DNA of 59,206 bases, filler included, from Sphacelaria rigidula (GCA_964200075.2; 8 parts of 8 records of this genome joined end to end with filler, not necessarily neighbours in it), one strand, 5' to 3'; shown: positions 2,281 to 56,730, counted from the whole stretch's first letter. Numbers and translations are program-made. The notes: generated by a model from the letters alone, not told the origin.

Positions 2281-2346
2281 CGTTCTCATGTGTTGCTTGC
2301 TCTAGTCGTTCGACCATTGACCACGCATCCCTTTCGAGACGGAGCA
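2281..2346 (-). mobile_element. Second ~65-nt retrocopy of the same LINE 3' end
   Basis: Same sequence and same 5' truncation point as 2149-2212, 30250-30316 and 37068-37134. Confidence 0.8.
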
Positions 2347-7314: not shown

Positions 7315-7414
7315 NNNNNNNNNNNNNNNNNNNNNNNNNNNNNNNNNNNNNNNNNNNNTTAATTAATTAANNNNNNNNNNNNNNNNNNNNNNNNNNNNNN
7401 NNNNNNNNNNNNNN
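7315..7414. other. Artificial contig spacer (N44-TTAATTAATTAA-N44)
   Basis: Identical 100-nt spacer with stops in all six frames, recurring every 7413-7414 nt. Confidence 0.98.
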
Positions 7415-10400
7415 CATCACGGGCACATGGACTTCAGCAGCTTTAGTTATTCATGTATTAACCCTTAGCATAGCACAGGAAAACAGGACCATAGCCTCTC
7501 TCCACCAGAGTAGCAAAACCAAGCCTCACGTCATGGAGGTCACCTACCACAGAGTCCGGCAATCAGACCCGCAACTTCACCTACACAATGTGGCTAGAGT
7601 CTACAGATCTCAGCAACATCCAGTGCTTTGTATGCGACAAATACGGGCATCGTCGCAACACATGCCCTAAACCTCTGCGACAGAGATCACAGGATCACCA
7701 ACAACAGCAGAGGCAAAAGAAGAAGTACTGGAAGAAAGGAGGAGACGGAATTCCAAGTGGTGTTCTTTACGCGAGACAGAAAGTTACAGCGACGAGCAGT
7801 GCTTCAAGCAGAAGGCTACAAAGAAGGAAAAAGCTAGCAGCATCAACTCCGCCAACATCAGCAGCACGCGAATCGCCCAGACAGCAGAACTCGAACAGCC
7901 AACATTTGGGTTTTCCTTCACATATGTCGGGACTACGCTCGCGAACGTGGCGGAGGAGTCCAAGAAGCTGGAAGAGCCCGACAAGTCAGTCTTCGTTCTT
8001 GGACTGGCGCCGGAAAAAACACTTGAGCAACGGACTGTAGATACTCGGGGGTTCTTTGGGACGATTGGCGAAGTTCCGGATGGGGAGTCATACGTGGCTA
8101 CGCCAACGGCTTTGTGCTCGGTGGGGCACAATGGGGACGGCATCAACAGCATATCCCTGATCATGCTGGTGGATAGCGGTGCATCTGCACACTACCTGGA
8201 CAGCGAGCTCGCTCCCGAAATTCAACGCCGGGTGACAAACCTAGCGAAACTGAAGAAGTCTCACAGGATTGTTACCGCTGGTAAACACATCGTGGAAGGC
8301 GTCGCAACGGGCACCATTTCTGGTACTGTCACCGACCGAGACGGCGGGAAGCACCTGGTTTCACTCTCGGTCATCACAATGCCTGGTCTGGGACGGCACC
8401 TTTTTTCAGTAGCTGCAGCATCAAACATGGGGGCTGTCACCATTTTCAACTCTGTTCAATCGCGCCTAAAGATGGGAAGCATCACTCTGCCATTGAAACG
8501 GCTTGGGGGCGATGGGTTGTTGTACTCCTTTAAGTTGGATCTGGGGGTTGTAACAACGGGAACGGCCATCCGAGCAGAGTCAGCTAACCTGTGGCACCGG
8601 CGTTTGGGACACGTCAACCGCAGGAGTCTGGATGCTTTGAAGAAGGTGGACGGCAATGGCGTCAACTACGACGGGGACGTGCCAGCTTGCGATGTCTGTG
8701 CCATCGGGAAAAGCACACAGCAATCTCGCCCCAAGGAAGCTACCTACAAGGTCACCCGTCCCTTTCAACTAGTCTACACCGAACTTATGGGGCCGATCAC
8801 TTCTCCGGCGTTTTGGGGCTACAACTACATCAGCACGTTCACCGACCAGGTGACCAAGTGGAAGGAGATATTCCTCATCAAGGACAAAAGCGATTCCCTT
8901 GACTCTCTCAAAATGTTCGTGCAAGCGCTCGTAGTTCCCAGTGAGTTGCGAGTCGAGCGCCTCCGTACGGATAGAGGCGAGTACACCGGTGATGCGTTCA
9001 AGGACTACTGTCATCATCAGACTGGCATCCGACACGAGTTCGCCTCAAGAAACACACCACAGCAGATGGATGCCTGCGAGCGTGACGGGAGGACCCTCGC
9101 CGGGATGGTGCGCTGCCTTCTCACGGACTCCGGCCTGCCGAATTTTCTGTGGGGAGAACTAATGCAAACCGCGGTACACCTAGCAAACCGGGTGCCGCAT
9201 GCAGCACTGGGAAATGTCACGCCGGACAAAAGGTTTTGCGGCAAGAAAACAAACCTTGGACATCTTCGGGTCATCGGGGCCAAGGAGTTTGTTCACGTCG
9301 AAACGCACACCAATAAGCTCGACCCCTAGGCTTGGGAAGGACGGCTCTGTGGGTACAGCATGGAAATCAAGTCTTTTAGGATCTACAATCCAGCAAAGAA
9401 GAACGTGAGGGAGAGCAGGAACGTCATTTTTATCGAGACGCCCTCTACCCTGCGGGCTCCGGAATTGACGGGCGATTTCATAGACACTGGTTTCACCCAC
9501 CAGACCCATGACCAATTTGTGAGAGACGCGAGGAACTACACTTCACGCCCTGACCTCAGTTCGCCGCTCAATCACATTGCGGGGATCGATCGACTAGGAT
9601 CGGATAACGACGGACTTCGGAACATCTTGGAGGAAATCCGCGAAATTACCGCTCTTGATCTGCGCTTACGCGCCGGGTCAGGGCCTGCATAGCCTGGGAA
9701 GAGCTCGCTGGCGGAAGCTATGCCGAGTGGAGAATCGGGAAGAGCATCTTCAAATGCCTCAGAAGAGGTATCTTCGTCTAGTGCGGGAGTTGCCTCTCGT
9801 TCCAAGACGCGGAGCACCCCTTCCGCCCAAACGTCGAGTGCGCCGGGACGCCCGGCGACACGAACCAGCGGTAACCCTCTCGCTAGTCCCAGCACGCCCC
9901 ACGACGGAGTTAGCGCGGCAACTTAGCGCGAACTCAATTAGCTAGCATACTACACCAAGGAGGTGGTGGAGGACGTTGCCCACCACGAGGACGCCCTAAA
10001 TTCCGTAGAAGGCGCCCTCGCCACCACCAATACCCAACTACAATGTCGTTCGGAGGGGAAGTAGGTGACCACAATTCCGAACACCTTCAAGGAGGCTATG
10101 GAGCTACCGGATCACAACACTGGAAAGCGGCGTCCGACAAGAAAATGAGGAGTCTGCAGGAATTTGGGGTCTACTCCTTGGTACCTTCCTCCACATTTCC
10201 TCCGGGAATGCAGGCGATCGGGTCGAGGTGGGTATATAAGATTAAGGCCGACAGAACCAACAAGGGGCGCCTGGTAGCCCAGGGTTGGAGTCAGGTGTCA
10301 GGCAGGGACTGCGGTGGCACTTCCGCTCCGGTATGCAGACTGCAGAGCATCCGCATGGTGCTCGCCACAGTGATGGAGATGAACTGGGAGGTCTACCAGC

Positions 10401-10503
10401 TGGACGTGCAAACGGCGTTTCTTAACGGAGACGTCGAGAAGGAGGTGTATGTCAACATGACACCTGGCTACGAGACCACAGAAAAGACGGAGATTCCGCT
10501 CTT
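7415..10503 (+). mobile_element. Degenerate Ty1/copia LTR retrotransposon internal region: gag knuckle, protease, integrase, N-terminal RT
   Basis: CFVCDKYGHRRNTC zinc knuckle (~7624); protease MLVDSGASAHYL; GAG-pre-integrase LWHRRLGHVN...CDVCAIGK; integrase RPFQLVYTELMGP, RLRTDRG, PQQMDACER; RT IGSRWVYKIK, KGRLVAQG, QLDVQTAFLNG. PR-INT-RT order indicates copia. Stops and frameshifts are present. Confidence 0.95.
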
Positions 10504-11263
10504 AACAGCAACTTGTGCGAATTGAGGTTTAACTCTGAATTGAGGCTCAAGTGGGCAACCCGACTTGCGNNNNNNNNNNCAGAAGTACCGAGGACAAGCT
10601 CTTATTCGGAAGAAGTAATCTGTGGAGGTGAACCCGTTACGCATCATGTTTAGTATCTCGGAGAAACGAGAGAAGTTAGTCGGGTGAGCACTCTTGTTCC
10701 TCTACACCACAGGGAAATAGGTGGCAGCGCACGGATTCCATGCCTTGCGCTAAGCCCCCACCCCCCCTCAGGCTGCGCCAGCGCGAGGACGGCATCCCGA
10801 TCATGCCCGACAGGGTGGAGGGGGTGGGGGTGCTCGTCAGGCATGACTAAGACGGGCACCGTTCGTGTCTTGAGATGGTGGATAGAGACTGGGATAGAGG
10901 CATTCTGTCGGTGACGCATACCACGTTCACGGACACGCTCGTAACGCGTTTTGAGGTGAGGGGATACTCAGAAATCCCTGCCTCTGTTTCTGTCGAGTTG
11001 GGGCCGACAACGCGTGAAGACACAGGGGTGAATCGCCCATACCGTAACGCAGTGGGGGGACTGATGCGGCTGGCAACAGTCACTAGACCTGACATAGCGA
11101 GTTCAGTACGAGCGCTCGCTCGCCAATCACATGATCCGTGCGAGAGCCACTGGGAAGCTGTGGTGAAGGTGCTAAAGTATCGAAATAAGGCAAAGGAGTT
11201 TGGACTTACGTTCAAGAGAGATCATGACAGGCTTTCAGTTTACTGCGATGCAGACTACGCTAA

Positions 11264-12204
11264 GGGCCTTTATTACCGACAAATAAAACAAACGGGAGAA
11301 AGTATGAAATTTCGGCAATCACCTAGGCCTTACTATTATCTAGATCTACTGTTGCTGATAGATGTATCATCACAGATAGTACTGATCTCGACGTTTGCTT
11401 ACCTTCGCCGGCAAAATAAAGGACAGGGTTATGCTACCTGCCCGTCTATGGCGTTCATGACTGTGGTGAACATCTTTCTCGCAACCCCTCTGTGACACAG
11501 GGGGGCAGTTTATGCTACCTGCCCGTCTATGGCGTTCATAACTGTGGTAAACATCTTTCTCGCAACCCCTCTGTGACACAGGGGGGTAGTCGGACAGGCT
11601 AGGGGGTGTTCGACCGGCTCTCTCGGGATGCTGCAGCAACTCACCCGAGTAAAAATACCAACTGTAGAAAGACCCGTGCATAGATTGCAGCATGCTTACT
11701 TTCTGTGAGTTTCATGCACAGATACACCCAAATAAACCACCAGTTATAGACTTTACAGACGGTGCGGTAGCGTACACTCGTAGCAGCACTGCAGGCAAGT
11801 GGGTAGCCACTGGACTGTTTCCGCTCTTCACTTCAAAAGTGCATATGTCTGCAAACGATGACCACCGTGCTTGACCCCAACAGCTCCAACACCGCTGCCG
11901 CGGCACACACCGTCTAAAGAGATAGATACCATCAACGCGCGGTGCCTTTTACTCTACAACATTGCCCAGGATGTCACTAGCAAGGTTCCTGATGATTATC
12001 GCATGCTTGCGAGCGCCACGGCGTGCGCCAAGGGCAGCTCTGCAGAGTATTGTGCTGCGGTCCGAAATAATCGGCGGTCGCCAAACGTGAAGGCTTGGCG
12101 AAACAATCCAGCAGCTTCATTTTTGGAGAACGCCAAGCGCAAGGTGCGAAAATGCAAAAAAATCTTGGCGATATCCGAAAAAACTGTGTCGGTAATAACG
12201 GCCC
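11264..12204. mobile_element. 941-bp non-autonomous PIF/Harbinger-like (Tourist-type) element
   Basis: 18-bp TIRs GGGCC(T/G)TTATTACCGACA; TAA duplication at 11261-11263 and 12205-12207; precise insertion into copia RNase H. Confidence 0.9.
11429..11590 (+). repeat. Two tandem 81-bp units inside the Harbinger-like element
   Basis: TTATGCTACCTGCCCGTCTATGGCG...TGACACAGGGGGG starts at 11429 and again at 11510; the copies are nearly identical. Confidence 0.95.
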
Positions 12205-12357: not shown

Positions 12358-14669
12358 TGTGACGAAATCACGCCGTCACGTTGAGTATAGAGTGATGATT
12401 GGATGATGACTTGGAATCTGTAGGGATGATATGGATGATGACATGGACACAGGGGTGATGCCCTGATGTGCTTTATGGGGCATGTGCCTGTGTGGTACTC
12501 CAGGGTATTAAAAGGTGTTGTGAAGGAGTCATCCTACGATAGGGGGGGGGGTATTTGGTTGCACGAAAAACGAGGCTCATAAGTGTGTNNNNNNNNNNCC
12601 GCCATGATCTGACGCGAAATTTCGAGCAACAAATGGCCCAAAATCCCCCCCCCCCCCCTAGCGTAGGATGACTCGAAGGCTGATAACTAAAACCTAAGGC
12701 CACTGGAACTGGGGAGTCCCTCAACAGCTTCAGATGCTGCAGTATTAGCAACCTGCAGGCGCCACAATATCGATACTAGTGCTAGTCGTGCTAGTTGTGC
12801 TATCGTTAGTGACTACTGGAAATATTTCAGTAGAGAGGAGTCTGGACAGCTCCGGACATATTGCTTCACGGACGCGTGAGAAGATTTCAAGCTGAGGTAG
12901 CTGCGAAGGCGGCTGGCCCGTGATTGATCCAGACTGGAGACTTGCTGGAGCTGCGTGCAGCAGGAGTTTACAGGACCCCACGGCTGTGTAGTGCGGTGAC
13001 GAAGGCAGGTGTGAACTGTGGAGTTCGAGAAGGTTTAGAAGTCTTCGATTAGGTCCGCTTGGAAATATCGACTACAGAGGTACCGGCCGAAGAGCCAGCG
13101 GAGACGACCGTAACCCCAGTTGTTCAGGAAGAAGCGTTGCGGCCTCCCAGTTACGGGAATTTGTATTCTGAGTGTGCTTCTTGTTCGTTTTATACGAAAT
13201 ACGTGGAATACAATAAGTGTGTGGCGCATGCGAATGCGGGGGGTGCGGTAAGGCATCAGGTGGTTTCCATGGCGCAACTCGTGCCTACCCCCCTTCAACG
13301 CGTTTTTGCGAGAAGATTCCATGAGAAGAGCACAACAACGCCGCTGCAACTGGCTGCAGCGATCAAGAAGCATGCAGGGCATACGGCGGGCGCTGAGGTA
13401 GAGCTAATACAGGCGTCCGCGGCCGCGGCGAAGGCTGTCGCCATACACCACAAGGGGAAGACCATGCGTGAGAGGGTGGAGCCAATCATGGGAAAGTTGG
13501 AAACATATTTTTCGGGAAATCCCAACGTCGAGATGGTTTATCGTTCCTCCGATGCGAAATTCCGTCCAGCGCCCGCTGCGGTGATCACGAAAGCGATGGT
13601 GGAGGGTCTGGCACCGGCGGAATTCAAACGGGCCGTGCTTGTGCAATTACAGCACGAAACCAATTGGAAGTCAGACCCGTACTTAGTTATGGATACCGTG
13701 GTGACTGGGGCTCAGGCATGGCGGAAGATTGAAGTATTCGGGAAATCATCCACTTCGTCGCCGCAGTCTTCGAGCTCGCTTAACTGCTGATCAAAATCCG
13801 CAGGCAGTGCCACCGCCAATATCACTTGCTTTCAGTGTGACCAGGTAGGCAGGCCACTACGCACGCAAGTGCCCAACGCCTTCCGAGGGGGAATCTGGGC
13901 AGACGAGTGCCGGGCGCCCTCGCAATCACAAAGGAGGGAACAGTCATCGGGGGGGTGGCCGAGGCGGATCCTCCAGCGGTGGAGGTGTACAGTCGAGTTT
14001 CCAGCAGCAGCAGCAGCAGGGGCAGCGGCGTCGGGGGGGTCCGGTTCTGGGTCCGGCTCAGCCGCGATGGCTGCTGCTCCGCAACGGGCGGTGCAGATGG
14101 GACCGACCACTCTAGTGTCGGGCTCGGTGCCGGCGCCGCTTGCAGCAGAGCAAGGCGAGACACCTGCTGCTGAGCCGGCCGGATTTCAGCTGAAATTTGG
14201 ATCCGCTGCTGCGTCGATCGGAGTACCGCTGCAGTTTGGTTCTGCGAGCGGGGCTTCGTACCCGCCGGCGGTGCCGGTGACCCCGGCGGAGGCGTCTATG
14301 CGTGCGCCGCACGCGCAGTCGTGGCGCAGAGTGGGGATCACGACAAATCAGTCGGCAGAGCAGGTGCCGGTCAAGGATCAAGAAATGTATCCCTGCAGAG
14401 TTATATCTCTCAAACCAACGGGCGGGGGGAGCCATATCTGTCAACGCTGTGTTGGATTCAGGCGCCCATTTTACGAGCGTGTCGGTGCTGATTGTGGAGA
14501 TGCGGGAGCGTCTACTCCCTGGTGAGCAAATCCGCATTCCGTTCTCGCTCGGGGCGCGGCAGGCAATCACCGCATCGGGGCAACGTATAAATGTCACGGA
14601 GCGTACGATTCCCCTACAGTTGGCGTTTAGGACTACGTGGGGGCCAGCGAAAGTACCCCCGGTATCGTT
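12358..14669 (+). mobile_element. 5' half of a Ty3/gypsy-like retrotransposon (putative LTR, gag, CCHC knuckle, aspartic protease) inserted in the copia RNase H
   Basis: Copia similarity ends abruptly at TGTGACG (12358). Gag-like ORF 13059-13790 is followed in frame by CFQCDQVG..HYARKC; protease AVLDSGA at ~14446. Confidence 0.7.
12526..12674. mobile_element. Sola-like non-autonomous DNA transposon (interior collapsed in an N gap)
   Basis: TIRs GAGTCATCCTACG(A/C)TAGGGGGGGG; 4-bp TSD GAAG at 12522-12525 and 12675-12678. GAG...CTC termini with a 4-bp TSD fit Sola2. Confidence 0.75.
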
Positions 14670-14728: not shown

Positions 14729-14828
14729 NNNNNNNNNNNNNNNNNNNNNNNNNNNNNNNNNNNNNNNNNNNNTTAATTAATTAANNNNNNNNNNNNNNNN
14801 NNNNNNNNNNNNNNNNNNNNNNNNNNNN
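14729..14828. other. Artificial contig spacer
   Basis: N44-TTAATTAATTAA-N44. Confidence 0.98.
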
Positions 14829-15049
14829 GACGCACTTCCTACTCCTCCCAAAAATTGCACATCAGCAGCGTCGTGCGGTACTCCTGAGGGCTTTTTGTCA
14901 CTCAACGGCTAGGGTCTTCAAACCTCATTTCATTGATGAACCTCATTTCATAGAATCCCATGTTAGGTGCTCACGCGGGGGGGGGTCATGTTGAGGAGCA
15001 ATTTGCCGGCGTGTGACACGCGTGGAACTCCTCTGTAGTTCCCGCATTT

Positions 15050-16460
15050 CGTCCGATCGCTCTATTTGTGGTGAACTATGATGGTGGCATCCTTTTATTC
15101 TTGTGGTACCGCTGCTCCACCCCAGGTGTCAACGATGATAGCGCGCAATCTCTACAGTCCGCTAATGTCGTCGCCGCCGAGGAATATCTTCAACAGTTTA
15201 GTTGGCAGTTCATCTGGGCCAACAGCTTTTCCGTTGGCCATATATCGTATGGCATCCGCTGTCTCGTCTATCTTAAGCACCACGTCCGGTGACGTGCTCG
15301 GAAGTCGCCCCTGGAGTTGGTCGATGATTGCTGGGCTGAGGTGGGGCGACTTGGTCTTGAGGAGGGTGTGAAACCACTGTACCCACAGCGCGCGGATGAA
15401 TTTTACGTCTCTGAGCAGTTGATCCTTGTTGTCGCGGATATGTTGCTGCTGTGAAATACATGGTTTCCCCCCTTCCACATCGACTCCCTTCAAGTGCCTG
15501 TAAAACCTTTGTTGGTCACCTTCCGCGATGTGCGCTTCAAGTCGACTGACGTAGTTCTCGAGGAATATCTCCACCGCATGTGCCTAAAACGCGGAGCTCC
15601 TTGTTGGTCTTCTTCAAGATTTTCTTGAGGTTGGTGTCAGTGGGTGTTGACATCGATTTCCTCCGTGCTGTTTCCCTCGCCATCCATGCCGTGTGAACCT
15701 TTTCCTTGGTCTCGGCGCTCGCGCACCAGCCGTGGGAGCCTCGTTGGTTTCTTTCGTGGGGTGCGGTGTCTGCTGCGGCGGATATCAGCATCTTGAAAGT
15801 GTACGAGATGCTCCACTTGGTTGTTCTGAAGAACGTCGTGAGCACGGTAGGGCTTCGATCCTCTGCGAAGACCAGAAGCATCTCACCGCTTTGTTTTGGT
15901 CGGTCCCGTCCGTATCAGCCGAGTACCTTTCCATCATTCTCTCCACCCCCTTCACTTTGTTTCCCAGTGCGGGCGTTGGCATCCACCATGGTGGATAGAT
16001 ATTCTTTGCCAGGTACCTGTGAGATGGTATCGGATACGTCAACCCAAAACTTGTTCTTGTCGCGCAGCGGAGCGGTCTCCGTCGGGACATACCCAACTAT
16101 AAATGATACTGCGTTGGATTTGCCGTATAGGTAAAGTTTCACCTTCATGAGGCGAGCGCTGAGGTACTCGACTGTAGCACCTTTTCCTCCCATCTCCTCC
16201 AGGATCGACTTCGTGATAGCGATCCCTACCCCATGTTGTCCTGCTCTCCCCTTAGCCTCGCTTGTGTCACCAGAACAGAATATCGTAAACCCCGTCCCAC
16301 TGAACACCGATTGGTCATCTATTCTGGTTTCTTGCAAACTCATGATATCGCAGCCCAGACTCTGACAAGGTTTTAGGACAATCTCGCTGTGGCCAATACC
16401 GTTCGCACCTTTGAAAGGGAGCGTGCGAACATTGTCAGTGCCGACAGTAAGCTCGCCGCT
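15050..16460 (-). mobile_element. Degenerate RTE-like LINE: APE endonuclease and RT N-terminus
   Basis: TVGTDNVRTL, LQETR, GQHGVGIAI, IVGYVPTE and VDANARTG are APE motifs; MANGKAVGPDELP is the RT domain-0 motif. Confidence 0.9.
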
Positions 16461-16935
16461 CCTGCCGCTCGCCCTCGCAGTCTTTTTTCTCTTGCCGGCA
16501 GCCCTGCAATCTGCTCGTCTCCTGCGCCTCTTCTTTTTCCGAGCGGAGTGTTTTTATTCTCCTCCGTCCTTTTGCATACAAGTCTTGAACAAGTATATAA
16601 TTATGTTCTGAAATTGGCATTACTTCGCGCGTGCTTGTTACCAGACATGGTTTCCGGGGTAACAGTCCCGACATGCCTCGACTGTACTGTAGGGTTCTGT
16701 ACTGGACTGTATTGTGCTTTTTCAATCAACACTGGTCGATCGCACATATGGCGGGGCAGCCTACGGCCAATCAGTGTGAGAAAAAAAACACGTCGAGTCA
16801 CGTCACGTCAGCGTCCTCTATGAAACTTCGAACTTCTCAGCGTCCACACTGAAGTCCTTCAACTACAACAGTAGGAGGAGTGATTCTGACATGAATTCTG
16901 ATCTTTTCCGAAACTCTATTATTGTACAAGATTAA

Positions 16936-22141: not shown

Positions 22142-22241
22142 NNNNNNNNNNNNNNNNNNNNNNNNNNNNNNNNNNNNNNNNNNNNTTAATTAATTAANNN
22201 NNNNNNNNNNNNNNNNNNNNNNNNNNNNNNNNNNNNNNNNN
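22142..22241. other. Artificial contig spacer
   Basis: N44-TTAATTAATTAA-N44. Confidence 0.98.
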
Positions 22242-23848: not shown

Positions 23849-23912
23849 ATAATAATAATAATAATGATCATAATGATCATAATGATCATATTTAATGATG
23901 ATGATGATGATG

Positions 23913-23994
<82 letters not shown>
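23849..23994. repeat. Compound (AAT)n/(GAT)n microsatellite
   Basis: Directly visible. Confidence 0.97.
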
Positions 23995-25545: not shown

Positions 25546-27733
25546 AAAAAAAAATCGATAGAAATATTTGTATCTGCGCTGACAGCGCCGTCAAAGTGGA
25601 CATACACGGTCACCTGCTCATGCCGTTGACCTGCCGCGGTCATGTGCAGTGCGGTTCCTGCGGAGCTGAGTACTGACCACAGGCGCATGGACTCTGTCTT
25701 GCTCTCCGATACCGTCAGTCCGGACTTCTGACAGGCCACCACCATCACAGCCATCATTCATGCACGCCTGTCTGGGAACCTCGAGACCATTCAGGCGTGA
25801 TCCGCATGCAGCATTCCCTGCACCGCGTGCCACACCTTTTCCAGCGGGGTCTTTGTCAGGGGTGGTCATCATCCCCACCGTCGGGGCGCATCATCTAGGT
25901 ATACCAAGTCTGAGACGATCGATGGCTAGCTTTGCCGCGAATCGTTGTAGAATGCGGTCGACCAAGGTTGCACCGAAGGCGTTGAACAAAACCGGGGACG
26001 AAGCGCATTTTGTGCCTGAGTTCCTGGCAGATGTGGAACCACGCTGACAGGTCGCCATCATCCAGCTGTACCCAAGCCCGCAGGCCATCGTAAAGCATGC
26101 TGATGACCTTGATCATCCGCGGCGGGACTCCGAACCGGGCAAGCACGTATCAAAGGAGCGTGCGGTCCACGGAGTCGTATGCTCTCTGCAGGTCAATAAA
26201 ATACATGGTTGGTGGGATATAGCTCGCCCGTCCCAACTCATGTAGTCGACGTACCACGAATATCATATTGGTGGGCAATCTTTGGCGTCGGAATCGGCAA
26301 TGCTTCGGGGAAGGCCCCTGACTCGTCGCAGAAACTCACGACCCCATTGGCTACGATTTTGAGGAGAGCTTTACCAGCATGTGCAACGACGGAGAGGTCC
26401 CTGTAGTTGCCACACTAGGTCCTATCTTTCTTCTTGTGTAGCACTTTGATAGGGCCGTTATTGCACTCCCGCGACACTTTGCCAGTTGTCCAAACAGCGG
26501 CGATGATGCTGTGAAATTAGTACAACTTCCCCGGACGCTCCCCCACTAACTCAAGCTGAAGGAGTTCGTTCAGCAGGTAGCCCGCCCGGGCCCATCGCTT
26601 CGCCCTTAGCCATAGCTCTTGGGCCTTCTCCAGTTTCAACTGGGCTTGGCGGGTCTCCAAGTGACAGCGCTATCTATCGGTCGTTGCGCAATGTTCTCTA
26701 CGACAGCTCGATCGACCTTTGCCGATATGGCGTTCACCAATGCGAACAACTTCCGTTACCGTTCCCATCTCTCACAAATTGGACCTTCGTCCTGCAGTAG
26801 GTTCCCGTTCTCGTTCTCGATATATTACTCCCTCTCAGGTTTTCGTCCTGCCAGAATCCACCCTCCTCTAGGATTTTTGTACCATCCTGCCATGCTCCCA
26901 ACTCTATTAAACTCCAGCTCCGTACCATGCACGGCCAGGAACCTGTCCACCCGAGCTTGGATAACCTCTTTGATTCCTCCACGCTGCTCTCAAGGTGCGC
27001 CACGCGGGGGTACCTACCGGTCCTATTCGCACCGTCGACCTCACCCTTTCCCTCTCATCCAAGACCTGTTCGGCCTCCGCTCGGATGGCAGCATCTTTGA
27101 GCCACCCCGCTATAGATGCCGTTCGGGTTCGATGGGGAACCACCTTCTCAGCGGAGCTCGGGAGTTAGTCGGCAAATTTCGCAGTCAATGCACTGGCTGT
27201 ACCCCCAGTTCGACTGCGCTTGAGCTCGCTGATGATGAGCTGGGTGAGTTGCTCATGTGTATCTGTGCCCGGCGTTATTGCCCGCCTGTACATCGGTTTG
27301 CGCCCGACCGAAGTTCGCCAAGGCCTGTTGGATGCGAAGCGACCAAGGAGCCGCGCAGAAGTGCATACGATTTGGTGGTCGGTGTCGGGCGAGTTGGGTG
27401 GTTGAACGTGGACGGTGACGTTGCGAAGAAGCCTGCAGCGATCTTGCAGTGTGAGGACGTGGTCAGTGCGTTTTTGTCCGCGGGACGATTCGCAATACAG
27501 TTGAACGTATGCGACTTGCCCACCTCGGGGGTTGATACCAATGTGTTGGCCAGGGCAACCCTGTTGTCGACTGAGAATTGTAGCAAAGAGATACCCTTGC
27601 CGTCGTCGGCTTGGGGGTCTCGGCTGTATGCCCCCATTATTTTACATCCCTCATTTTTCTGTTCTTAGCCCGTTCTGTTCGACTTTTTCTGTCCCTTCTT
27701 TCTTAATCAACTTTTTCAGTTTTGCTTTGTGTT

Positions 27734-29554: not shown

Positions 29555-29654
29555 NNNNNNNNNNNNNNNNNNNNNNNNNNNNNNNNNNNNNNNNNNNNTT
29601 AATTAATTAANNNNNNNNNNNNNNNNNNNNNNNNNNNNNNNNNNNNNNNNNNNN
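29555..29654. other. Artificial contig spacer
   Basis: N44-TTAATTAATTAA-N44. Confidence 0.98.
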
Positions 29655-29839
29655 GTATCAGTAGGGTATGAGATGTCCCAAATACCGGTACCGGGTACCT
29701 ACCTTACCTACGGTGCCTGTGGAAGATTGGTAATTGGACTTTTGTATGGGACGATGAGAATCAGTTGAATGCAGTGTGGTCATTCGAAACCCCATACAAA
29801 AGCGACATGTCCATGCTGGGTAGTAAACCTACACTCAAA

Positions 29840-30085
29840 GGGTGTACTCACGATCTTATATGCCGTAGTCACATGGCCATTGACTTCGCATCCCTTCAAA
29901 GCTGGGACGGAGCACGCCGGGTTTTCGCCAGGCAAGGCTCGCAATCAACCACCAAGCGCGGAATGCCGTGATGCGTTGGGTGAGTCGCATGAAGGGTAAG
30001 CTGCATCCTGCTGAGCTTGTTCGGCCCGAAGCGTACCAACTATATTGCATATGGATGACAGCTTACAATGAGTTGCTTCATTTTC
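29840..30085 (+). repeat. Unclassified dispersed repeat 'family X' (other copies 36180-36400 minus, 36900-36967 plus, 39650-40110 plus)
   Basis: Shared DNA and conceptual peptide H.AIDLASLQS.DGARRVFA..G.QS..KR. Confidence 0.75.
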
Positions 30086-30249
30086 TGGTATCGACACTTT
30101 CCGAGACATGACCACGGGTTCCACAATGCCTCATGAACCCTACACTGAGAGGACGCACAATACTTCCTGGATACCACCTCCTCCCCCTCCCGCGAACACC
30201 CGCCCCCTCCCCCTTCCTCGAACACCCCCCCCCTCCCCCCAAGATCACC

Positions 30250-30316
30250 CTGCTCCGTCTCGAAAGGGATGCGTGGTCAATGGTCAAACGACTAAGGCAA
30301 GCAACAAATGAGTACG
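30250..30316 (+). mobile_element. 67-nt LINE 3'-end retrocopy with a perfect 15-bp TSD
   Basis: CCCCCCAAGATCACC at 30235-30249 and 30317-30331 flanks CTGCTCCGTCTCG...AAATGAGTACG; no poly(A) tail. Confidence 0.9.
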
Positions 30317-30386
30317 CCCCCCAAGATCACCAAATTTCAACTTTGTAGGCGATGGCGTCACGTAAAAAAATATGAACACCCTCGGG

Positions 30387-35492: not shown

Positions 35493-35557
<65 letters not shown>
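35493..35557. repeat. (TTA)n microsatellite
   Basis: Directly visible. Confidence 0.97.
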
Positions 35558-35770: not shown

Positions 35771-36420
35771 CTGTGGAGAGAAACACGGTACGGTGCAACG
35801 GACGAGGGTTCCCGGCTTCTGCTGTACTGGACTAGTGTACCGTCACGCCCTGGTGGTCGAAGTGATAACGGTACAATGAGACGGCATAGGGCGAAAGAAG
35901 TGTTCGAAGCCTGGCAGATGCATTTGTTTTTCTTCCTGAGAAAGTAGACGATTTCCGTCGATGAAAGCGGTTGGGACGTGAATAGCAAAGGAAGTAACTC
36001 TGATAAATGTTGACGCGGTGCGGTAGTGTTGGTCATCATCCGATCCGCGGTATCAGGGACGTGATTGGTTGATCTCTAGAGACAGCGGATTCGTCCAGAG
36101 GAAGGGGAGAGGTTGGAAGTGTAACGAAAAAACATGAAGCGTTTCTGGTTTAACGAGCCATGACTAATGCCACGATCCTCCCCCCCCCCTCCTCGACACC
36201 AGCCGAAAACTGTCACGAAGGAAATGATCATACAGCGGATGATACTTGGTTTAAGGTAACATGAAGTGCCTGATATGGGTGACATTGGCGAAAGCGATCC
36301 CAAGCGCGGGAATTCCCAGCGGCTCGTTGTGCCCGGCTTATTTCATTTCGATTTACGTGCAGATTTTGCCTCCCCAAACCGGCCACTCTATATTTTTGGA
36401 GGGGGGGGGGGGGGGGGGGG

Positions 36421-36885
36421 CACCTATTTGTTGCTTGCCTTAGTCGTTTGACCATTGACCACGCATCCCTTTCGAGACGGAGCATCGTTTCTACTCCTAA
36501 TAGAGACACCTCCAACGTTTGGGTGCTCATGACGTTTCTTCCATATATTACACAAAATCTTTTTCGTATCTTATCCCCGCCCTTTTTCGCCGGCTGTGGC
36601 CACCATCTATCTCCTAGTATAGCCATCGTGCTCTCCCTACTATCTAGTGCATCAAACGGTTTCATGCCACCTTCCTTCACGTCCCGTATTTCCCCCTCTA
36701 GCACGTCCCGTTCCTCTCTGTATAGTTCACATTCTGCCACTAGATGACTTCTGCTCTTTGTTGCATTGCCACAGGGGCACTTCTGTGCATCTACTTCCTC
36801 CTCCACTCGACTAGTGGTATATCTCTTCATTCTATCCGGCAGGTCCAGGTCCCCCACCCGAACTTCGCCGCGTCCATTGGGCCAT
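36421..36885 (-). mobile_element. Longer 3' fragment of the C-tract-associated LINE, with a C-terminal CCHC zinc finger
   Basis: RVGDLDLP...CPCGNATKSRSHLVAECELY...ILGDRWW, followed by the same 3' end as the 65-nt copies; flanked by G20 (36401-36420) and a G tract at 36894-36908. Confidence 0.85.
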
Positions 36886-36967
36886 GTAGATATGGGGGGT
36901 GGGGGGGGTGTACTCATGATCATGCATACGATAGTCATCAGGCCATTGACCTCGCATCCCTACAAAG

Positions 36968-37067
36968 NNNNNNNNNNNNNNNNNNNNNNNNNNNNNNNNN
37001 NNNNNNNNNNNTTAATTAATTAANNNNNNNNNNNNNNNNNNNNNNNNNNNNNNNNNNNNNNNNNNNN
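36968..37067. other. Artificial contig spacer
   Basis: N44-TTAATTAATTAA-N44. Confidence 0.98.
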
Positions 37068-37134
37068 GCGTACTCATTTGTTGCTTGCCTTAGTCGTTTG
37101 ACCATTGACCACGCATCCCTTTCGAGACGGAGCA
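37068..37134 (-). mobile_element. ~66-nt LINE 3'-end retrocopy
   Basis: Near-identical to 30250-30316; G tract at 37144-37164 on its 5' side; the contig breaks at its 3' end. Confidence 0.85.
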
Positions 37135-37299
37135 TGCTCACCAGGGGGGGGGGGGGGTGGGGGATATCTCGGTAACTCATCAGCCGAACAAAGCATGCAC
37201 CCCCAAAACGGAGTGGTGCACAGTTTTGGGATCGGTCGACAAATTGATCGGTTAGTCTGATTGGCCGAGAAAGCCCCACCGCGTGTACTGTCCTTGTTG

Positions 37300-39530
37300 T
37301 CTTCACAGTAAAACCCGTTCCGATATCTGCGCAGTACTCTGTACTGGGCATCCGATGCGGACGCCTTCCGTGGTCACAGGCTCACTACCCCAAAACAGGG
37401 TAAAATAAATTAGGAAAAATAAAATCAGACCCGCAAAAATCTCACAGACGCGACACAAAAAAATGCAAACGAATGAAAATGATAACGGTAATTATAAAAG
37501 AAGAAAGAGAAGGAAAAAATACTGCTGAGCTCTTAAGTTCCGATGCCGTATGTGACCATTCGGGCTACTGTTACGCAAAGCCCATTGGTCCAGTCAACAC
37601 GCGAGGCCAAGCAGGAAGGGAGTCAAACTAGAAATTGATCCACTCAACACGAGAATCCAAACAGAAAGGGAGAAAAACTCACGGACGAAGATCGCCAACC
37701 ATAGCAATGAGAATCGCAGGGTTCTATCCTTGTACCTCCAGAAGGACAGCCGTGTGTACGAATATACTAGACATCACAAGAAAAGTACTATATGACAACA
37801 CAACAACTTAGGGGAGGGGTGCATGGAAGTCAGCAATTAGTAGGGAGAAAAAAAGACAAGGGGAGATGATGGGGAGTCCTGACACTTCCGCCATGTTCAG
37901 TTCGTTACACGCTGGCTACGCATCCTTCCAGCTCCTCCCTTCTCTCCTCAAAGATCCCGTTTATGCACTTTTTCGGCTGGCCTCCTCCTCGTTCTGGTGC
38001 CGAGAGGTCATGAACCTCTCCGCTCCCTGCAGAACCCCCGCGTGTCACGGTATCCCCCCTTTCTTCTTCGCTGCTAAGGGTCAGAGAGCACTCTCAACTC
38101 CGAACGTCTGTCCGTTGTCGTCCGTAGAGCCGTTCGTAACCGAAAGCTTGAAAATTGTCCCTCAGGCACTTCAGCCAGTTTTTCTCCGGGCACCCTGGTC
38201 CTGGATCCTCCCCCCCCCCACGGGTGTTCCGAATGCCAGTCTCTTCGATAGTCTTCCGTGCGGTTGCCTAGCCAGGGCTCCCACGAACAGCAGTCACCGT
38301 TGCCGGACGATGGCTTAAGCGCTTTGGCATCCGGTTTTCTTAACGGTACACTAGCGGTTGCTGAGGACGTTACACTACCAGCTCCTCCTGCGGTTCATCA
38401 GGTACCGCGGCGTGCGTGGCACATACCGACAGTTATTTTACCGTAGTGCTCGCAGCGCGGGGCCCCACGTCATGCATGTGTATAGTAGGGCCTCAATCGC
38501 CTCCGCCTTCAGCAGTCGGACCTTGAGTCCCCACGGTACTTTCGGTCGGTCGAAGATCTCCCGGGGAAACTTTATGGTGCACGCCCACATGGCTCTGCTT
38601 CGGTTGTTGATCTCTTGTGTGAGCTCGCCGTCTTCGGTGACGAACCCACCCAGGTATCGGAACTTCGTGGTTTGTGCGTACTTCTAGCCCGCTACTTCGA
38701 TGACCAGTGGAAGAGGAAGTGTTGTTGGTGGCTCCCCCCTCTGTAGCAATTTTGTCGGTACTCGCATCAGCAGAGGCTCTGTCTTCTTCTCCGACACCGT
38801 CAGTCCGAAGGCCCCAAACACGTATACTATAACGGTCATCATCCTCGCCAGGCCGTCGGGGGACACGAGATGACGACGGCTGCGTCATCGGCATATAGCA
38901 TTCCCCACACCGCTGTCCGTACGCGTTCCCGTGGTGTTTTTGTCTCCATCGCCCTCTCGTCGTCGAGATATACCGTGTCCTTGAGGATGATGTCATCCTC
39001 TCTGAATCGCACGAGAACTGTCTCGAGCGCCGCAGCGAAACAAGTACTGAACTGCAGTGGAGACAACACACATCCTTGCCGCAGTCCCTGAGTGGCCTCA
39101 GACCACTGCGAGAGCTCCCCGTCGTCCATGCGTACACGGGCCTGCATGCTATATCGTGGAATTGGCGGATAACTGCCATCATCTCATCCGGAATACCAGG
39201 TCGGGCAAGTACCTGCCATAAAAGCTCTCGATTGACCGAATCATAGGACTTTTGGAGGTCGACGAAACACATGTATAATGGTATTCTCCGTCGCCGTCCC
39301 AGTTCCTGGAGTCGGCGCACCACAAACAACATATCGACGGTGGATCGATCAGGTCGGAAGCCGCACTGTTCCTCCGGCAGTATCCCATGGGCTTCAGGGT
39401 AGTCACCAAGGCGGTTGGCCACTATCTTCCACGTCACTTTCCCTGCGTGCGACACTAGTGAAATTCTCCGGTAGTTGTTACAGTTGGAGGGATCCAATTT
39501 CTTGTAGATCACTTTTATCGTAGCATATTT
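37300..39530 (-). mobile_element. 5'-truncated RTE-like LINE (RT, C-terminus, long 3' UTR), frameshifted
   Basis: NYRRISLVSHAGK, EEQCGFRPDRSTVD, FVDLQKSYDSVNR, QGLRQGCVLSP, WGMLYADD, GLTVSEKKTE. The 3' region matches 42655-43410. Confidence 0.95.
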
Positions 39531-39649
39531 TCACTCTCAAGTTTCGAAGAAAAAAACTATGGATATAGACACTACTTCGTCTTACTTGCAGGGTGCTTGG
39601 CAATTCCGTTTTTTTTTTGCAATTTTAGAGGGGTGATGCCGCGATAGTC

Positions 39650-40110
39650 CCCCCCCCCAGAGAAGTGGATGGTTTTACGAGGCAAAATCTACATGCGAAT
39701 CAAATGACAAAAGCCGAGCACACCGAGCAGCTGGAAGCGCCCACACTTGGGATTGTTTTCGCCAATGTTGCCCATATTAGCGCTCCATGCAGTCTGAAAC
39801 CAGCTGTCATGAGCGTTATGGCCATTTTCTTCGACAGTATTGGGACTGGTTTGGGGGGAAGGAGGTGGTTACTGATGGTCTTGCGTGCCGTCGTCATCAG
39901 ACCATCGACCTCGCATCTCTACAAAGCCAGGACGGAGCACGCCGGGTTTTCGCCGATACGGGCTTGCAATCAATCATCAAGCGCGAAGCACCGTGGTGTG
40001 TTCGGTGAGTTGCATGAGGGCTGAGCTGCATGCTGCTACGATTGTTCGGCCCGAAGCGCACTGAGTATCTTGCATATGGATGACAGCCTCCAATGGGTTG
40101 CTTCATTTTC
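39650..40110 (+). repeat. Longest copy of unclassified repeat family X
   Basis: Aligns with 36180-36400 (minus) at its start and with 29840-30085 at its end; begins at a C tract. Confidence 0.75.
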
Positions 40111-40319
40111 TGTGTGTTTATTTTTTGCGGAGGGGAAGAGGGGCTATCGTGGCGTCACGCAATGGGTTATCAAATGGTATTATTGATGTCTGTTCTCTAC
40201 ACGATCATACCGCGAAAAGCTCACACCTTTAGCTGGGATCACACGATATGCCGTAAAAAGTTGAAGCACGGCTCGTGCAGTGTAGCAAGTCAAAATCCGG
40301 GTATCGTGCCATCGGCTGC

Positions 40320-44380: not shown

Positions 44381-44480
44381 NNNNNNNNNNNNNNNNNNNN
44401 NNNNNNNNNNNNNNNNNNNNNNNNTTAATTAATTAANNNNNNNNNNNNNNNNNNNNNNNNNNNNNNNNNNNNNNNNNNNN
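44381..44480. other. Artificial contig spacer
   Basis: N44-TTAATTAATTAA-N44. Confidence 0.98.
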
Positions 44481-51793: not shown

Positions 51794-51893
51794 NNNNNNN
51801 NNNNNNNNNNNNNNNNNNNNNNNNNNNNNNNNNNNNNTTAATTAATTAANNNNNNNNNNNNNNNNNNNNNNNNNNNNNNNNNNNNNNNNNNNN
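51794..51893. other. Artificial contig spacer
   Basis: N44-TTAATTAATTAA-N44. Confidence 0.98.
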
Positions 51894-53745
51894 AAACTGT
51901 TCTACAGTATATCGGAACGGTTGGCATAGAAAGCGTAGTGCCACCTGCATCGATTCCAGTTCCCAACAACTACAAACAAGCATCTTCTTCACCTTTCGCA
52001 ACAAAATGGAGAGCAGCCATTTTGGACGAACTCCGCAGCATTCAAGACCATCGCGTGGTCGGCACTATTCCAGCTGGAGAAGTTCCGCCGAACAACAACA
52101 TAATTGGTACAAGATGGGTCTACAAGGTCAAAGCCGACGGACGATTCAAGGCCCGACTAGTTGTACAGGGTTGGGCACAACGACACGGCTTCGACTGCGG
52201 GAGCTCTTTCGCACCAGTCTGCCGCCTGGAGAGTCAGCGAATCCTCCCTGCGATTGCAACTGCGAAAAACTGGCCAATAATTGCCCTCGATGTTCAAACA
52301 GCCTTTTGGAATGGAAAGCTACAGGAGACAGTATTTTGCAAGCAGCCACCTGGATTTGAGACAACGGACCCTACTACCGGACAACCACATGTGATGCTTT
52401 TGCGCCGGGCCCTTTACGGTCTGCGTCAGAGTCCCAATGTATGGAACGCAACGGTAGCCTCCGAGTGGAGAAAAATCGGCTTCACTGCTACTGCGAGCGA
52501 TCCCTGCGTCTATACGAGAGGACACGATGATAAATACGTCATGCTTACGCTGTTTGTGGATGACATCCTTCTCGCCGGACCTTCGATCAAGCTTCTTCAG
52601 GATCTTCAAGATAAACAAAAGAAGGAATTCTCCATTTCAGAGCTTGGGCCAGTGTCCCTTATCCTCGGCATGGAGATAACGAGGGATACAGAACAGTGAA
52701 CACTCAAATTATCTCAGCACAAGTACGTCCTCTTCTTACTTCAAAAATTCAAGATGGAGTCTTGTAATTCAGTGCATACACCAGGGATCATTAATAATAC
52801 ACTTCCAGCTTTGGAGGAACATCTACTGGATCTTCAAGGGATGAAGCAGTACCAAGCTATGGTGGGAAGCTTGATCTTTCTATCCCAGTGCACGAGATTC
52901 GATATAGCCTTCAGCGTTACTCAGGTCGCCCGCTACATGAGCAAACCTACCACGGAGCACATGGCAGCTGTCAAACGTATTTTTCGCTATCTGAAAGGTA
53001 CACCGGATCTGCCCATCGTCTACCGCAGTTCAAGAAAAAACTTGGAACTGAAAGGTTTCGCAGATTCGTCATATGGGAATGAAGGTCTTGGAGGGAAAAT
53101 GAGATCAACATCTGGGACCATGTTTTTTTCTAGCGAACGGATATACATTTTTCTTCGAGTCTACAACGGATAACAGCCTCTTCTACAACCGAAGCTGAAC
53201 TTATAGCACTGGTAAGAGGAGGAAAATTCGGTACATACCTTTTCAATCTTCTTGGAGAGCATGGGTGATCTCTGCGGCCTCCAACGATTTTTTCCGATTC
53301 ACAAGGCGCCCTCCACCTCTCTTCGAACGCGAACTACAGAAATAAGAGCAAACATCTGGCGATTAGGTTCTACAGCCTCAAGGACCTCATCAACACGGAC
53401 CAGCTAATCGTCAACTATGTCAGGACTAGTCATCAGTTGGCCGACATACTCACAAAATATTGTGAAAAGGCAACACACCGGCGACTTCTTAATGCAGTCG
53501 CCGATTTCGGAAAGTGACTCTACCAACGGAGGAAACAGACGCTCGTCATTAACAAGGATGACGAACTGACCGACGTGCGTCATTACTAGTACGTCATTTT
53601 CAAAGGGAGCGTATCAACTTTCGTATGTCAAACACTTCAACAAAGCAGGGCTGGGACTACCACCAACGCACACCCAGTCACAACTCTCAAAACACATCTC
53701 CTATCTTCATCTACCAGCATACATCACTACTTCCTTTCTTCAACA

Positions 53746-54742: not shown

Positions 54743-56089
54743 TACTCTTTGTTCATTTGTCTAGTTCACGATTTGATTGAAATTTGATTTGCTACCCACG
54801 TACAACTCAAGGGAGTGTGTTGCAAATCTATACAGCCAAACAATCTAGCTGTATATCTTCCGTGTGTGAGTTTTTTACTCTGTAGCAGATGAGCGGGTCA
54901 ATACGTCTCGGTTCGACTAGGAACCACCCAATATTGACCAAAGGTTCAAGTGCTGGTTTTTCTGTAGATACTTGAGTTCAATGTCCTGTCAGATTTTCCA
55001 CGNNNNNNNNNNCTTGTATAACAAGGCAGTGTGCTGCCATTGTTTGAGAGTGCTGTAGCTTGAGTAAGAATCCAGTCTGTGAGCTGGCATATCAACACGT
55101 CAGAGTCAAGGACGCGTTTTAGTCTACGTACGTGTAGAGCTTTGTTTTTTGCTCCAAGGATTGATCAATGGTAGTCGGTGGTCCTCACCGCCCTCTACAG
55201 TCACTCTCCTTCACTACCATCAGTTCTCCGCTTTGAGAGGAAACTGCGAGTTCTGCTTTTCTTGGCCAAATAAGCGCCCAATCAACCATTAACCTCACTG
55301 ATTTTATTCTGAAGCTACGGAAGCAAGTGGTCTAATCAACCACGGTGCAACCTGTGCATACTACTGTTCGCTGAACAGTAGTTGGCCTGTCGTAAGGACA
55401 GTGCCACGACCACAAATTATTCCAACAAAATTAAGCTCAAACACCCGGAATTAAGCTATACTTCATTAGCGCATACGGAGCAGAAGCTTCATTCCTCGTG
55501 AAATTTCAAAATGTTTCGATATTCCCGTGTCTAGCATCATATGCGATAGTATTAGTATAGAGAGAGGGTTGTTGCCCTAACATGAGGCTCACAAGTACCT
55601 CAACATACAATTCGTGGTCACACACAAAAGCAGCGGCTTGAGCCATCTTGTGCTTTATTCAAAACTGGTCTCACAGTAAATGCATACAGAGCCAAACTTG
55701 ATCTCAGGCGGTGGGAGAAACCAACTCATCTCTAGGACAATACAAACGAATGAGCCTTTGGCCACATGCAGGGGCTCACCAGTAGGGACTCAGCTGGCCA
55801 ATAGAAGAAAGAGAGTGTTATTCACAGGTCGTCGCCTAGGTTCAAAACCAGAGTGAGAGAAGCCTCAACCGATCTCAGAGAGGCTCATCTTACACAGCTG
55901 TCATCTACCATACCTGGGACCAAAAATGGATCCGAAACATGCCGAGTAATATGCTCAAAACAAGGAACACAATGAACGCCCGTTGTGGCTCATGACCGGT
56001 AGATTCGCCCCTTACGATCTGCCGAGCACCGGTTGATGCTCTGGGGGACGATGAAGACTAAACATCCAAATCTCAAATGAACATCGTGC

Positions 56090-56730
56090 ACTGTACACAG
56101 CTTACAGCAACCATGAGCTACATCCTGAACCCGTGACCATCCGAACATATTTTATGTTCACATCTATCCGATAGAACTACTAGTATAATGCTCGAGAACC
56201 GTTGCTCCAAATACCATAGCACATAGCACTGCTGACACACTCCATCATCGTCTTGACCATTCTCCAATCTTTCCTCTGATCCCAGTTTCCCACAACGTTT
56301 CTCATTGCCCGTTTCTCCGCACTGTGTCGCAGCCATTTTGTACGTCCTGAAAGAAACAGTACATTATCATCCCAGCGTCTTACCCACCTTGAACAATCTT
56401 CCCTGATTATGTACACATATGGTCTACGCAACTACGGTTTGGTCTCAAACCCTCTTGCCCCTTGTTGTTCTTTTCTTCTTTTTCTAGTATCGTTCACACT
56501 CTTTTGTTCGGAATCTTACAAAATGTTTTTCTATGGTGCTCAATAGCGTCATTTCTCTAAAACGTCCCTGGGTCGGCCTTGCCTCCTTTCCTGAAGAGGT
56601 CAACTACTATTCCTTCTCTTTACCTCTTGGGTGTGTACTCGTGTCCCCAGATCCAGTCAGTTGTACAGCACAGCCATCATGGTGTTCATTCCCTCTCCTC
56701 CGTGCTTTAGAAAACCGCTTGCTATTTCGT
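56090..56730 (-). mobile_element. Very degenerate LINE reverse transcriptase fragment
   Basis: Across frames: REMTLLSTIEKTFCKI, CFFQDVQNGCDTVRRNG, LWETGIRGK, QDVAHGC, matching NYR.ITLLS, FLDVQKAYDTV and QGV.QGC. Confidence 0.7.

Follow-up and report, generated by a model that had tools for sequence, protein, structure and literature searches.

The window, that is, the whole stretch of DNA analysed here (59,206 bases), is composed of eight chunks of 7313-7314 nt joined by linkers of the form N44-TTAATTAATTAA-N44. Given that it is made of joined chunks, features at chunk ends are cut, and neighbouring chunks are possibly unlinked. The GC content of the window is 50%, and pieces of Ty1/copia elements and fragments of LINEs abound in its chunks. 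Five copies of a 67-nt repeat, c1 to c5, were found by BLAST and nhmmer on chunks 1, 5, and 6 (Table 1), which confirms the original prediction of five copies with a common 3' end on three scaffolds. The 21-mer end, with up to 3 mismatches, has 4 matches in the window versus 0 in 100 shuffles; c4, which has a mutated end, is absent from these matches and was recovered by BLAST. For the 20-mer core, 8 matches were obtained versus 0 expected, corresponding to the five copies and to three members of a related family, fam2 (around 29875, 36941, and 39900), that the original prediction did not include.

Table 1. Positions of the features discussed, and 3' flanks of the readable copies of the element.
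Feature	Position in window	Strand	Remarks
Linkers	7315-7414, 14729-14828, 22142-22241, 29555-29654, 36968-37067, 44381-44480, 51794-51893
c1, tail-only copy	2147-2212	-	3' flank CCCCTC8, continuing as CCCCTC8ACCCACCC (G8 on + strand, 2136-2143)
c2, tail-only copy	2281-2346	-	68 nt upstream of c1, orientation as c1; 3' flank GCCCACAACCC, the sole copy of nine without a C run
c3, 67-nt tail-only copy (last 20 ORF2 codons, TGA, GTACG)	30250-30316	+	nhmmer E 6e-23; 3' flank C6
c3 TSD, left copy, CCCCCCAAGATCACC	30235-30249	.	15/15 identical to right copy
c3 TSD, right copy	30317-30331	.	directly after ...GAGTACG
c4, 5'-truncated copy, about 449 nt	36421 to about 36869	-	ORF2 residues about 1183-1328, CCHC finger; 3' flank C20
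C20 run directly after c4 3' end	36401-36420	-	G20 on + strand
c5, tail-only copy	37068-37134	-	chunk begins 1 nt beyond c5 3' end
C5AC14 run (element strand)	37143-37163	-	8 nt (TGGTGAGC) before c5 5' junction
RT fragment of the same LINE family	56074-56806	-	76% nt identity to L058; 40-57% aa identity to P0004
fam2a, 3' end of SINE-like partner	36909-36967	-	cut by chunk end
fam2b, full-length SINE-like partner, 293 nt, CATGAGGCA...GAGTACA	29843-30135	-	last ~80 nt homologous to LINE tail
fam2b TSD, 3' copy, CCCTTTGAGTGTAGGTTT (element strand)	29825-29842	.
fam2b TSD, 5' copy, CCTCTCAGTGTAGGGTT	30136-30152	.
fam2c, 5'-truncated SINE-like copy	39870-40118	-	3' flank ACCACCTCCTTCCCCCC
fam2d, 5' part of SINE-like element	59107-59206	+	first base as fam2b; cut by window end
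L001, copy in another assembly			3' flank C11GC5
L002, copy in another assembly			3' flank C8
L003, copy in another assembly			3' flank C10
L004, copy in another assembly			3' flank CCTC7
L058, copy in another assembly			3' flank C13

The 67-nt repeat corresponds to the last 20 codons of a single-ORF LINE (...APSRKGCVVNGQTTKASNK), followed by the TGA stop and by GTACG, and the stop of the ORF therefore lies 5 nt before the element end. The reading of the repeat as a 3' UTR is ruled out, given that it encodes the ORF2 C-terminus up to the stop plus 5 bases. The frame that contains c4, at 36228-36959(-), has 52-69% identity to the ORF2 C-termini of brown-alga proteins, with the best protein matches coming from Sphacelaria rigidula and Ectocarpus sp., so that a brown alga is the most likely source of the window. 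The copy c4 itself presents one frameshift near 36555. The LINE-type C-terminal CCHC finger that had been attributed to this long copy is real and reads CPCGNATKSRSHLVAEC in this frame. The complete protein is represented by a relative of 1328 aa, P0004, which carries an Exo_endo_phos domain (E 8e-15, residues 142-383), an RVT_1 domain (E 1.7e-32), a CCHC finger (CPCGKSEESRPHIVGEC), and the C-terminal end ...GRVVNGQMTKASNK. A full-length copy from another assembly, L058 (G001:C43:1-5259), carries an intact, stop-free frame of 1382 codons, which aligns to residues 1-1328 of P0004 and ends TGA GTACG. No ORF1 was found upstream of the ORF of L058, where stops interrupt every frame over 1.1 kb. 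The copies end alike whether they measure 67 nt, about 449 nt, or more than 1.9 kb or are full length, and this variable 5' truncation with a common 3' end is accompanied by the other features of the LINE class, namely a LINE-type reverse transcriptase (RT), an N-terminal AP-type endonuclease, and a target-site duplication (TSD). As judged from its sequence, the element is a non-LTR LINE with an AP-type endonuclease, in which a single predicted ORF of ~1330-1380 codons comprises the endonuclease, the RT, and the C-terminal CCHC finger.

The best relatives of P0004 with solved structures are those of human L1 ORF2p (8uw3 and 8sxt; E 1e-25 over residues 550-962), followed by R2 proteins. The RT is matched at E 1e-77 by unnamed fish/marine relatives, versus 1e-25 by human L1. 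The protein collection holds 581 relatives at E 1e-10 or better, mostly from marine assemblies, and a motif of the type G/R-C-V/E-V-N-G is present ~8-12 residues before the stop in about ten of the 20 relatives fetched. Matches of the LINE RT in the protein atlas were to generic RT clusters only. Viral contigs contained no relative detectable by protein and no match to the two DNA patterns used. When the window was searched with 21 relatives, no ORF2 C-termini were found beyond those of this LINE family. More distant LINE RT/endonuclease fragments lie at 14972-16553, 25994-26507, and 38493-39530. Pieces of Ty1/copia-type pol are present in 7671-11495 and 51896-52699, with gag_pre-integrs and a weaker rve match, below the Pfam cut-off, at 7671-9329, and RVT_2 (E 2e-53) at 51896-52699. 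A ladder in the self-BLAST also reveals a 3-nt-periodic stretch at 23849-23994 and 35493-35557, on two chunks and in opposite orientation.

L058, a contig of 5.3 kb with an intact LINE of the brown-alga type, was recovered from a bacterial MAG, G001, of which a second contig (L059, G001:C51) carries a LINE RT fragment. These LINE contigs are eukaryote contamination of the bin, and no further copy of the LINE was found in this MAG by pattern search. Among prokaryote genome contigs, the 20-mer core has 53 exact matches (L005-L057), of which L042 only is the element; L058 is the whole contig to which this search led. The other 52 were rejected as element copies, given that the flanking pattern common to them encodes ...AVMGCVVNGPGE...; the sole prokaryote locus tested, L010:3-599, is Pfam GcpE/IspG (E 6.6e-58). 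To judge by what they encode, these matches are a chance coincidence with the GCVVNG motif of the LINE, and a trap for k-mer searches.

The related family fam2 is non-coding, about 293 nt long, and has the features of a SINE: a LINE-derived tail, a fixed 5' end (fam2b and fam2d), and a TSD (fam2b). No tRNA was found in the window by ARAGORN that could form the head of fam2, and the search for a 5S, 7SL, or snRNA head with Rfam at E <=10 gave one chance-level lncRNA match only in 29800-30200. Behind the 3' end of fam2a comes C8AC6 (36894-36908), a run located upstream of c4, and C7GC7GC7 (59068-59090) is found 16 nt upstream of fam2d. In the tails of fam2a and fam2b (36909-36967 and 29843-29925, both on the minus strand), the frame that matches ORF2 meets no stop before the element end and continues into the C run, so that poly-proline would be encoded.

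The 3' flank can be read in nine copies of the LINE, four from the window (c1-c4) and five from other assemblies (L001-L004 and L058). In eight of these, a run of at least six Cs starts no more than 5 nt after the 3' end, versus a background of 0.0041 (0.41%) at random window sites (P = 7e-19). The 3' ends are thus linked to C runs well beyond chance, C-run enrichment over background being a comparison that the original prediction had proposed. The reading of the window flanks as a C tract at the 3' ends of three copies, a C-rich remnant at one, and a fifth copy broken at its end with a C tract on the 5' side also proved correct. Although L002 and L058 share 96.6% identity over 1951 nt, their flanks differ, and they are therefore separate insertions. 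The element end is exact (GTACG) in seven of the nine copies. All nine end in ...GAGTACG or a variant of it, with no A run or microsatellite at the element end in any of them. The description of the family as tail-less holds, therefore, as far as poly(A) and microsatellites are concerned, but may go too far in view of the Cs behind L058 and c4, which fit an RNA that carried some Cs, or RT slippage.

The association with C runs was also seen in Logan contigs from four runs of 2 studies (X1, X2, X3, and X5), aligned to chunk 5. The contig ends that continue past position 30322 number 653, 564, 649, and 143, respectively, and their consensus goes on as a further 12-20 Cs (C12-C20), with the agreement with the flank consensus being only 0.39-0.47 and one run being possibly the window's own source.

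On the 5' side, a run of at least six Cs is present within 35 nt upstream of four of the eight junctions (c3, c4, c5, and fam2d; background 0.015, P = 3e-6), while the 5' flanks of c1, c2, fam2b, and fam2c have none. A C run is found, that is, at the 3' side of most copies and at the 5' side of half of the junctions, and C runs make up the plurality of contig ends on either side; c2 and fam2b lie in merely C-rich sites, where the runs are of 2-3 Cs. The preference for C/G runs is strong, but not absolute. Contig ends before position 30251 (157, 163, and 159) have a consensus of a long C run followed by GG. Given that long copies read AACGGTGCTCCG, this GG is element sequence, which means that a plurality of the tail-only units lie inside C runs.

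The TSDs indicate where these Cs belong. At c3, the perfect 15-bp duplication that had been proposed, with its first six bases being the Cs of the target, was recovered in full, and the number of Cs at the 3' junction is the same as in the 5' TSD copy (6 and 6). The left copy is preceded by C9T (30225-30234), in a stretch that is C-rich from about 30190. This stretch (30190-30234) includes two similar units, CGAACACCCGCCCCCTCCCCC and CGAACACCCCCCCCCTCCCCCC, which slippage, or a previous event at that site, may have left behind. For c2, a TSD-like pair is formed by ACGACCCAC--CCCTT on the 5' side and ACGGCCCACAACCCTT on the 3' side, with about 11/13 matching, a start of (G/A)CCCAC, and no extra Cs. 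The TSD of fam2b (CC(C)T.T.AGTGTAGG.TT) matches at about 13/17, starts with CC(C)T, and also has no extra Cs. In the three copies with a readable TSD (c3, c2, and fam2b), the Cs after the 3' end are therefore within the TSD and derive from the target, and the fact that c2 and fam2b have no C run means that a long C tail is no obligatory part of the insert. The C run is separated from the element by 9 unique bases in c3, where they are the rest of the TSD, and by 8 in c5, which suggests a fixed geometry.

Two copies behave differently. L058 is followed by C13 and GTT and then by a G-rich flank, and its sole TSD candidate, GGGGAGGGGTGG versus GGGGTGGGGTGG (11/12), is G-rich, adjoins an inverted diverged unit, and contains no Cs, a sign that the Cs came with the RNA or were an addition of the RT. 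At c4, C20 follows the 3' end, whereas the 5' side has C8AC6, and 25 nt without a match separate the 5' run from the element. Both copies may be accounted for by an RNA that carried some Cs by read-through, or by slippage of the RT. Furthermore, the run upstream of c4 is certainly the run behind the older fam2 copy, and those upstream of c5 and fam2d may likewise follow older elements, given that both have ...GAGTTAC upstream of the run. For this reason, 'target' and 'old tail' are not fully separable. No empty-site joint for c3 or c4 is present among the 15 joints listed, with 1582 further joints outside the list; the unique parts are covered by contigs, but no listed contig piece spans the whole stretch.

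These observations can be read in two ways. According to the first, which we consider probable, the C run is a preferred landing site that is duplicated with each insertion and possibly lengthened by read-through Cs of the RNA or by RT slippage. According to the second, the Cs are a tail copied from a template: transcription of master copies would extend through a downstream run, the RT would start inside it, and C-rich targets would be selected through annealing of the primer, with an endonuclease that has no specificity for G runs. Microsatellite tails are carried by CR1, L2, and I-type LINEs. This second reading would explain the C13 and GTT before the G-rich flank of L058, the excess of Cs at the 3' side of c4, the exactness of the element end, and the length of the 3' runs at contig ends (6 + 12-20 C), which is beyond what is expected for unrelated genomic runs. 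It is harder to reconcile with the clean TSDs of c2 and fam2b, in which the lack of a 3' C run indicates that a long tail is not always copied, and with the equal number of Cs on the two sides of c3. In c2, moreover, the 5' flank is homologous to the 3' junction as far as the last ACG of the element, which fits an RNA that ends in ...ACG. We regard a templated tail as rather unlikely, and the two readings can be combined.

A third possibility is that no choice of sequence is made, and that C/G runs are merely fragile or prone to nicking, with the RT using existing breaks (endonuclease-independent priming). This is favoured, if only indirectly, by the abundance of homopolymer runs of at least 8 in the window, with 11 of C and 9 of G versus 0.78 and 0.66 in shuffles, which is about 14 times the shuffle frequency, and by several other repeat ends of the window, which also abut C runs. 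Nonetheless, full-length copies keep an intact endonuclease domain (P0004, and L058 without stops), TSDs of 15-18 bp are of the kind that staggered enzymatic cuts give, and the part of the TSD that is not C measures 8-9 nt in both c3 and c5. Priming at existing breaks is for these reasons improbable.

C runs behind repeat ends are found in other families of the window. Another repeat end, ...ATGCC(A/G)CGAT..T, at 36100-36189 and 39560-39658, has C10 behind both copies, and repeat ends of the type ...AATA followed by C9-C14 occur at 12542, 12645, 19206, 21477, and 21594. The C runs are, therefore, not confined to the LINE family studied here. A repeat of ~190 nt, at 36198-36387 and 39664-39850 (74% identity, opposite orientations), is flanked at both loci by a C run and, on its opposite side, a G run, and lies between inward-pointing 3' ends of different families. 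This repeat may serve as a favoured target, or may be an element that has homopolymers at its ends. The region 12526-12675 is palindrome-like, with the structure GAGTCATCCTACGATA-G10-...N10 gap...-C14-TAGCGTAGGATGACTC. The motif (C)n + ATCGTAGGATG is also present behind the LINE copy in L003, in another assembly.

Four of the five copies c1 to c5 are tail-only units. These measure 66-69 nt and start no more than 3 nt from a common position, (GG/A/C)TGCTCCG, in c1, c2, c3, and c5, and the diverged inverted unit of L058 (4741-4834) likewise starts within 3 nt of this TGCTCCG position. Such a fixed start is not predicted by random 5' truncation. A self-cleaving ribozyme at the 5' edge of the 67-nt unit was considered and rejected, with no Rfam ribozyme at E <=10, as was a stable RNA fold behind the fixed 5' end (no Rfam hit, fold z-score 0.12). 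A conserved structure in the tail units was likewise discarded, given that none of the 14 pairs of the consensus fold has compensatory changes. The LINE, the 293-nt partner, and the tail-only units have the 3' module in common, and from this we infer that all cis-signals for reverse transcription are within the last ~70 nt.

The units are also found in arrays. The head-to-tail joint 30322->30251 (unit-Cn-unit) is present in 32, 20, 48, and 3 contigs of the four runs, and the joint 30322->36485 on the opposite strand, which runs via c4, in 16, 11, 22, and 1. Joints in which the C run of a unit leads to a G run and an inverted unit are also frequent among the joints listed. The window shows this array pattern too, in the like orientation and close spacing of c2 and c1 and in the position of c4 behind the C run of fam2a. 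Given the tandem joints, the 67-nt units and their C runs could be taken for a tandem repeat of satellite type that spread through recombination or slippage, with the Cs as part of the unit. This is very improbable, in view of the dispersed single units with differing flanks, the perfect TSD of c3, and the occurrence of the same end, next to flanks that all differ, at the close of the long or full-length copies of ORF2 found in five other assemblies. An artefact of assembly or sequencing, with false joins of repeat ends to homopolymers, might be suspected from the start of chunk 6 exactly at the element end and from the tendency of short-read assemblers to break at long homopolymers, but it is hardly credible for a junction that the window has in common with 4 metagenome contigs, 1 MAG contig, and the contigs of 4 runs belonging to 2 studies.

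Taking the C run as the preferred landing site, integration would occur by target-primed reverse transcription at C/G homopolymers or C-rich sites. The strand with the G run would be nicked, and its 3'-OH would prime the cDNA from the extreme 3' terminus of the RNA (...GAGUACG), with the top strand being cut about 8-18 nt downstream. The resulting TSD of 15-18 bp would thus begin with Cs, and every copy would end up before a C run. Given that each insertion would duplicate the C run, new copies would land behind old ones, which would give rise to head-to-tail arrays and to the multiplication, and probably the lengthening, of C/G runs. The anatomy of the element, its association with C runs at its 3' and 5' sides, and the Cs at the start of the TSDs are directly observed. 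The polarity of the nick, the choice of the target by the endonuclease, and the annealing of read-through Cs of some RNAs to the G primer are inferred, and G-quadruplex DNA may have a role in target choice.

This scheme can be extended, tentatively and with more doubt than confidence, to a brown-alga LINE lineage in which the whole system of autonomous element, SINE-like partner, and 67-nt units is keyed to G/C runs, and which would be the first LINE specific for a C/G homopolymer. Insertions would duplicate and probably lengthen their own targets, so that the elements would create a load of long C/G runs, with the potential to form G4 and i-motif DNA. The fixed 5' end of the tail-only units would correspond to a defined short template RNA, for example a processed fragment, or one left by ribosome-stall cleavage of an ORF whose frame continues into the C run. 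This putative discrete template of about 67-69 nt would start at GGUGCUCC.

Should this be true, it would account for the 20 long C/G runs (at least 8) in 58.6 kb, versus about 1.4 expected, and for the assembly breaks at these runs. Though still part of the coding sequence, the ~70-nt tail would rank among the shortest defined retroposition modules, and the element would provide a simple system for studying how an AP-type endonuclease or the annealing of primer and template sets the target. The known targets of site-specific LINEs comprise rDNA, the genes for snRNA and tRNA, telomeres, and repeats of di- to tetranucleotides, and mononucleotide C/G runs would be added to this list. For the annotation and assembly of brown-alga genomes, the LINE, its partner, and the C/G runs need modelling.

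Among known LINEs, those of the RTE clade have a single ORF, a very short 3' UTR, and heavy 5' truncation, and end in short AT-rich repeats. The RTE clade is cited in the Saccharina genome paper (PMC4421812). The brown-alga LINE resembles it in its single long ORF, in having almost no 3' UTR, and in the extreme truncation of most copies, a likeness that leaves the placement of the RT aside. It differs from RTE in its C-terminal CCHC finger and in ending at C runs.

L1 inserts by a logic of poly(A) and TTTT/AA. Both L1 and the brown-alga LINE have an AP-type endonuclease and an RT, in both the old tails become new targets, and both have a 3' homopolymer whose first bases merge with the start of the TSD. 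In the brown-alga LINE, however, this homopolymer is C and not A, and cannot come from polyadenylation; the A-rich 3' tail of an L1-like poly(A)-dependent element is absent from the nine readable 3' ends. Unlike those of L1, moreover, the non-autonomous partners carry the LINE's own 3' module, which is the 'stringent' type.

Stringent pairs of LINE and SINE with a common 3' tail include eel UnaL2/UnaSINE1 and the partners of CR1/L2-type elements. Such pairs are described in general terms in one publication (PMC5786205). As in these pairs, fam2 is a non-coding partner (293 nt) with a tail homologous to the last ~80 nt of the LINE, with TSDs, and with a fixed 5' end. It departs from them in that no tRNA, 5S, 7SL, or snRNA head was found by the searches described above, in that no microsatellite follows the tail, and in that this tail is coding sequence in the LINE.

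The closest parallel is with LINEs that insert into simple repeats. Kojima and Fujiwara, in 2004, reportedly described Dong in (TAA)n, Waldo in (ACAY)n, Mino in (AC)n, Kibi in (TC)n, and Koshi in (TTC)n. Togen, a LINE specific for (TG)n, appears in another report (PMC4640811). Like the brown-alga LINE, simple-repeat LINEs have no poly(A), their copies lie in or at the edge of a simple repeat, they form head-to-tail arrays, and their target is a harmless multicopy sequence. In simple-repeat LINEs the repeat is seen at both junctions, as it is for part of the brown-alga copies. What distinguishes the brown-alga LINE from them is its host lineage, the brown algae, a preference that is strong and not absolute, an ORF that ends 5 nt before the element end, and a target, the mononucleotide run (C)n/(G)n, that was not found among those described. 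The claim that a specificity for C/G tracts was undescribed agrees with the accessible literature, brown-alga genome papers included and Repbase and the supplements of the papers outside the scope, in which no account of a C-run-linked LINE was found. Within this same scope, and as far as found, the element is new in being a LINE of the target-specific kind that combines a (C)n/(G)n homopolymer target with a SINE-like partner and a minimal unit of ~67 nt.
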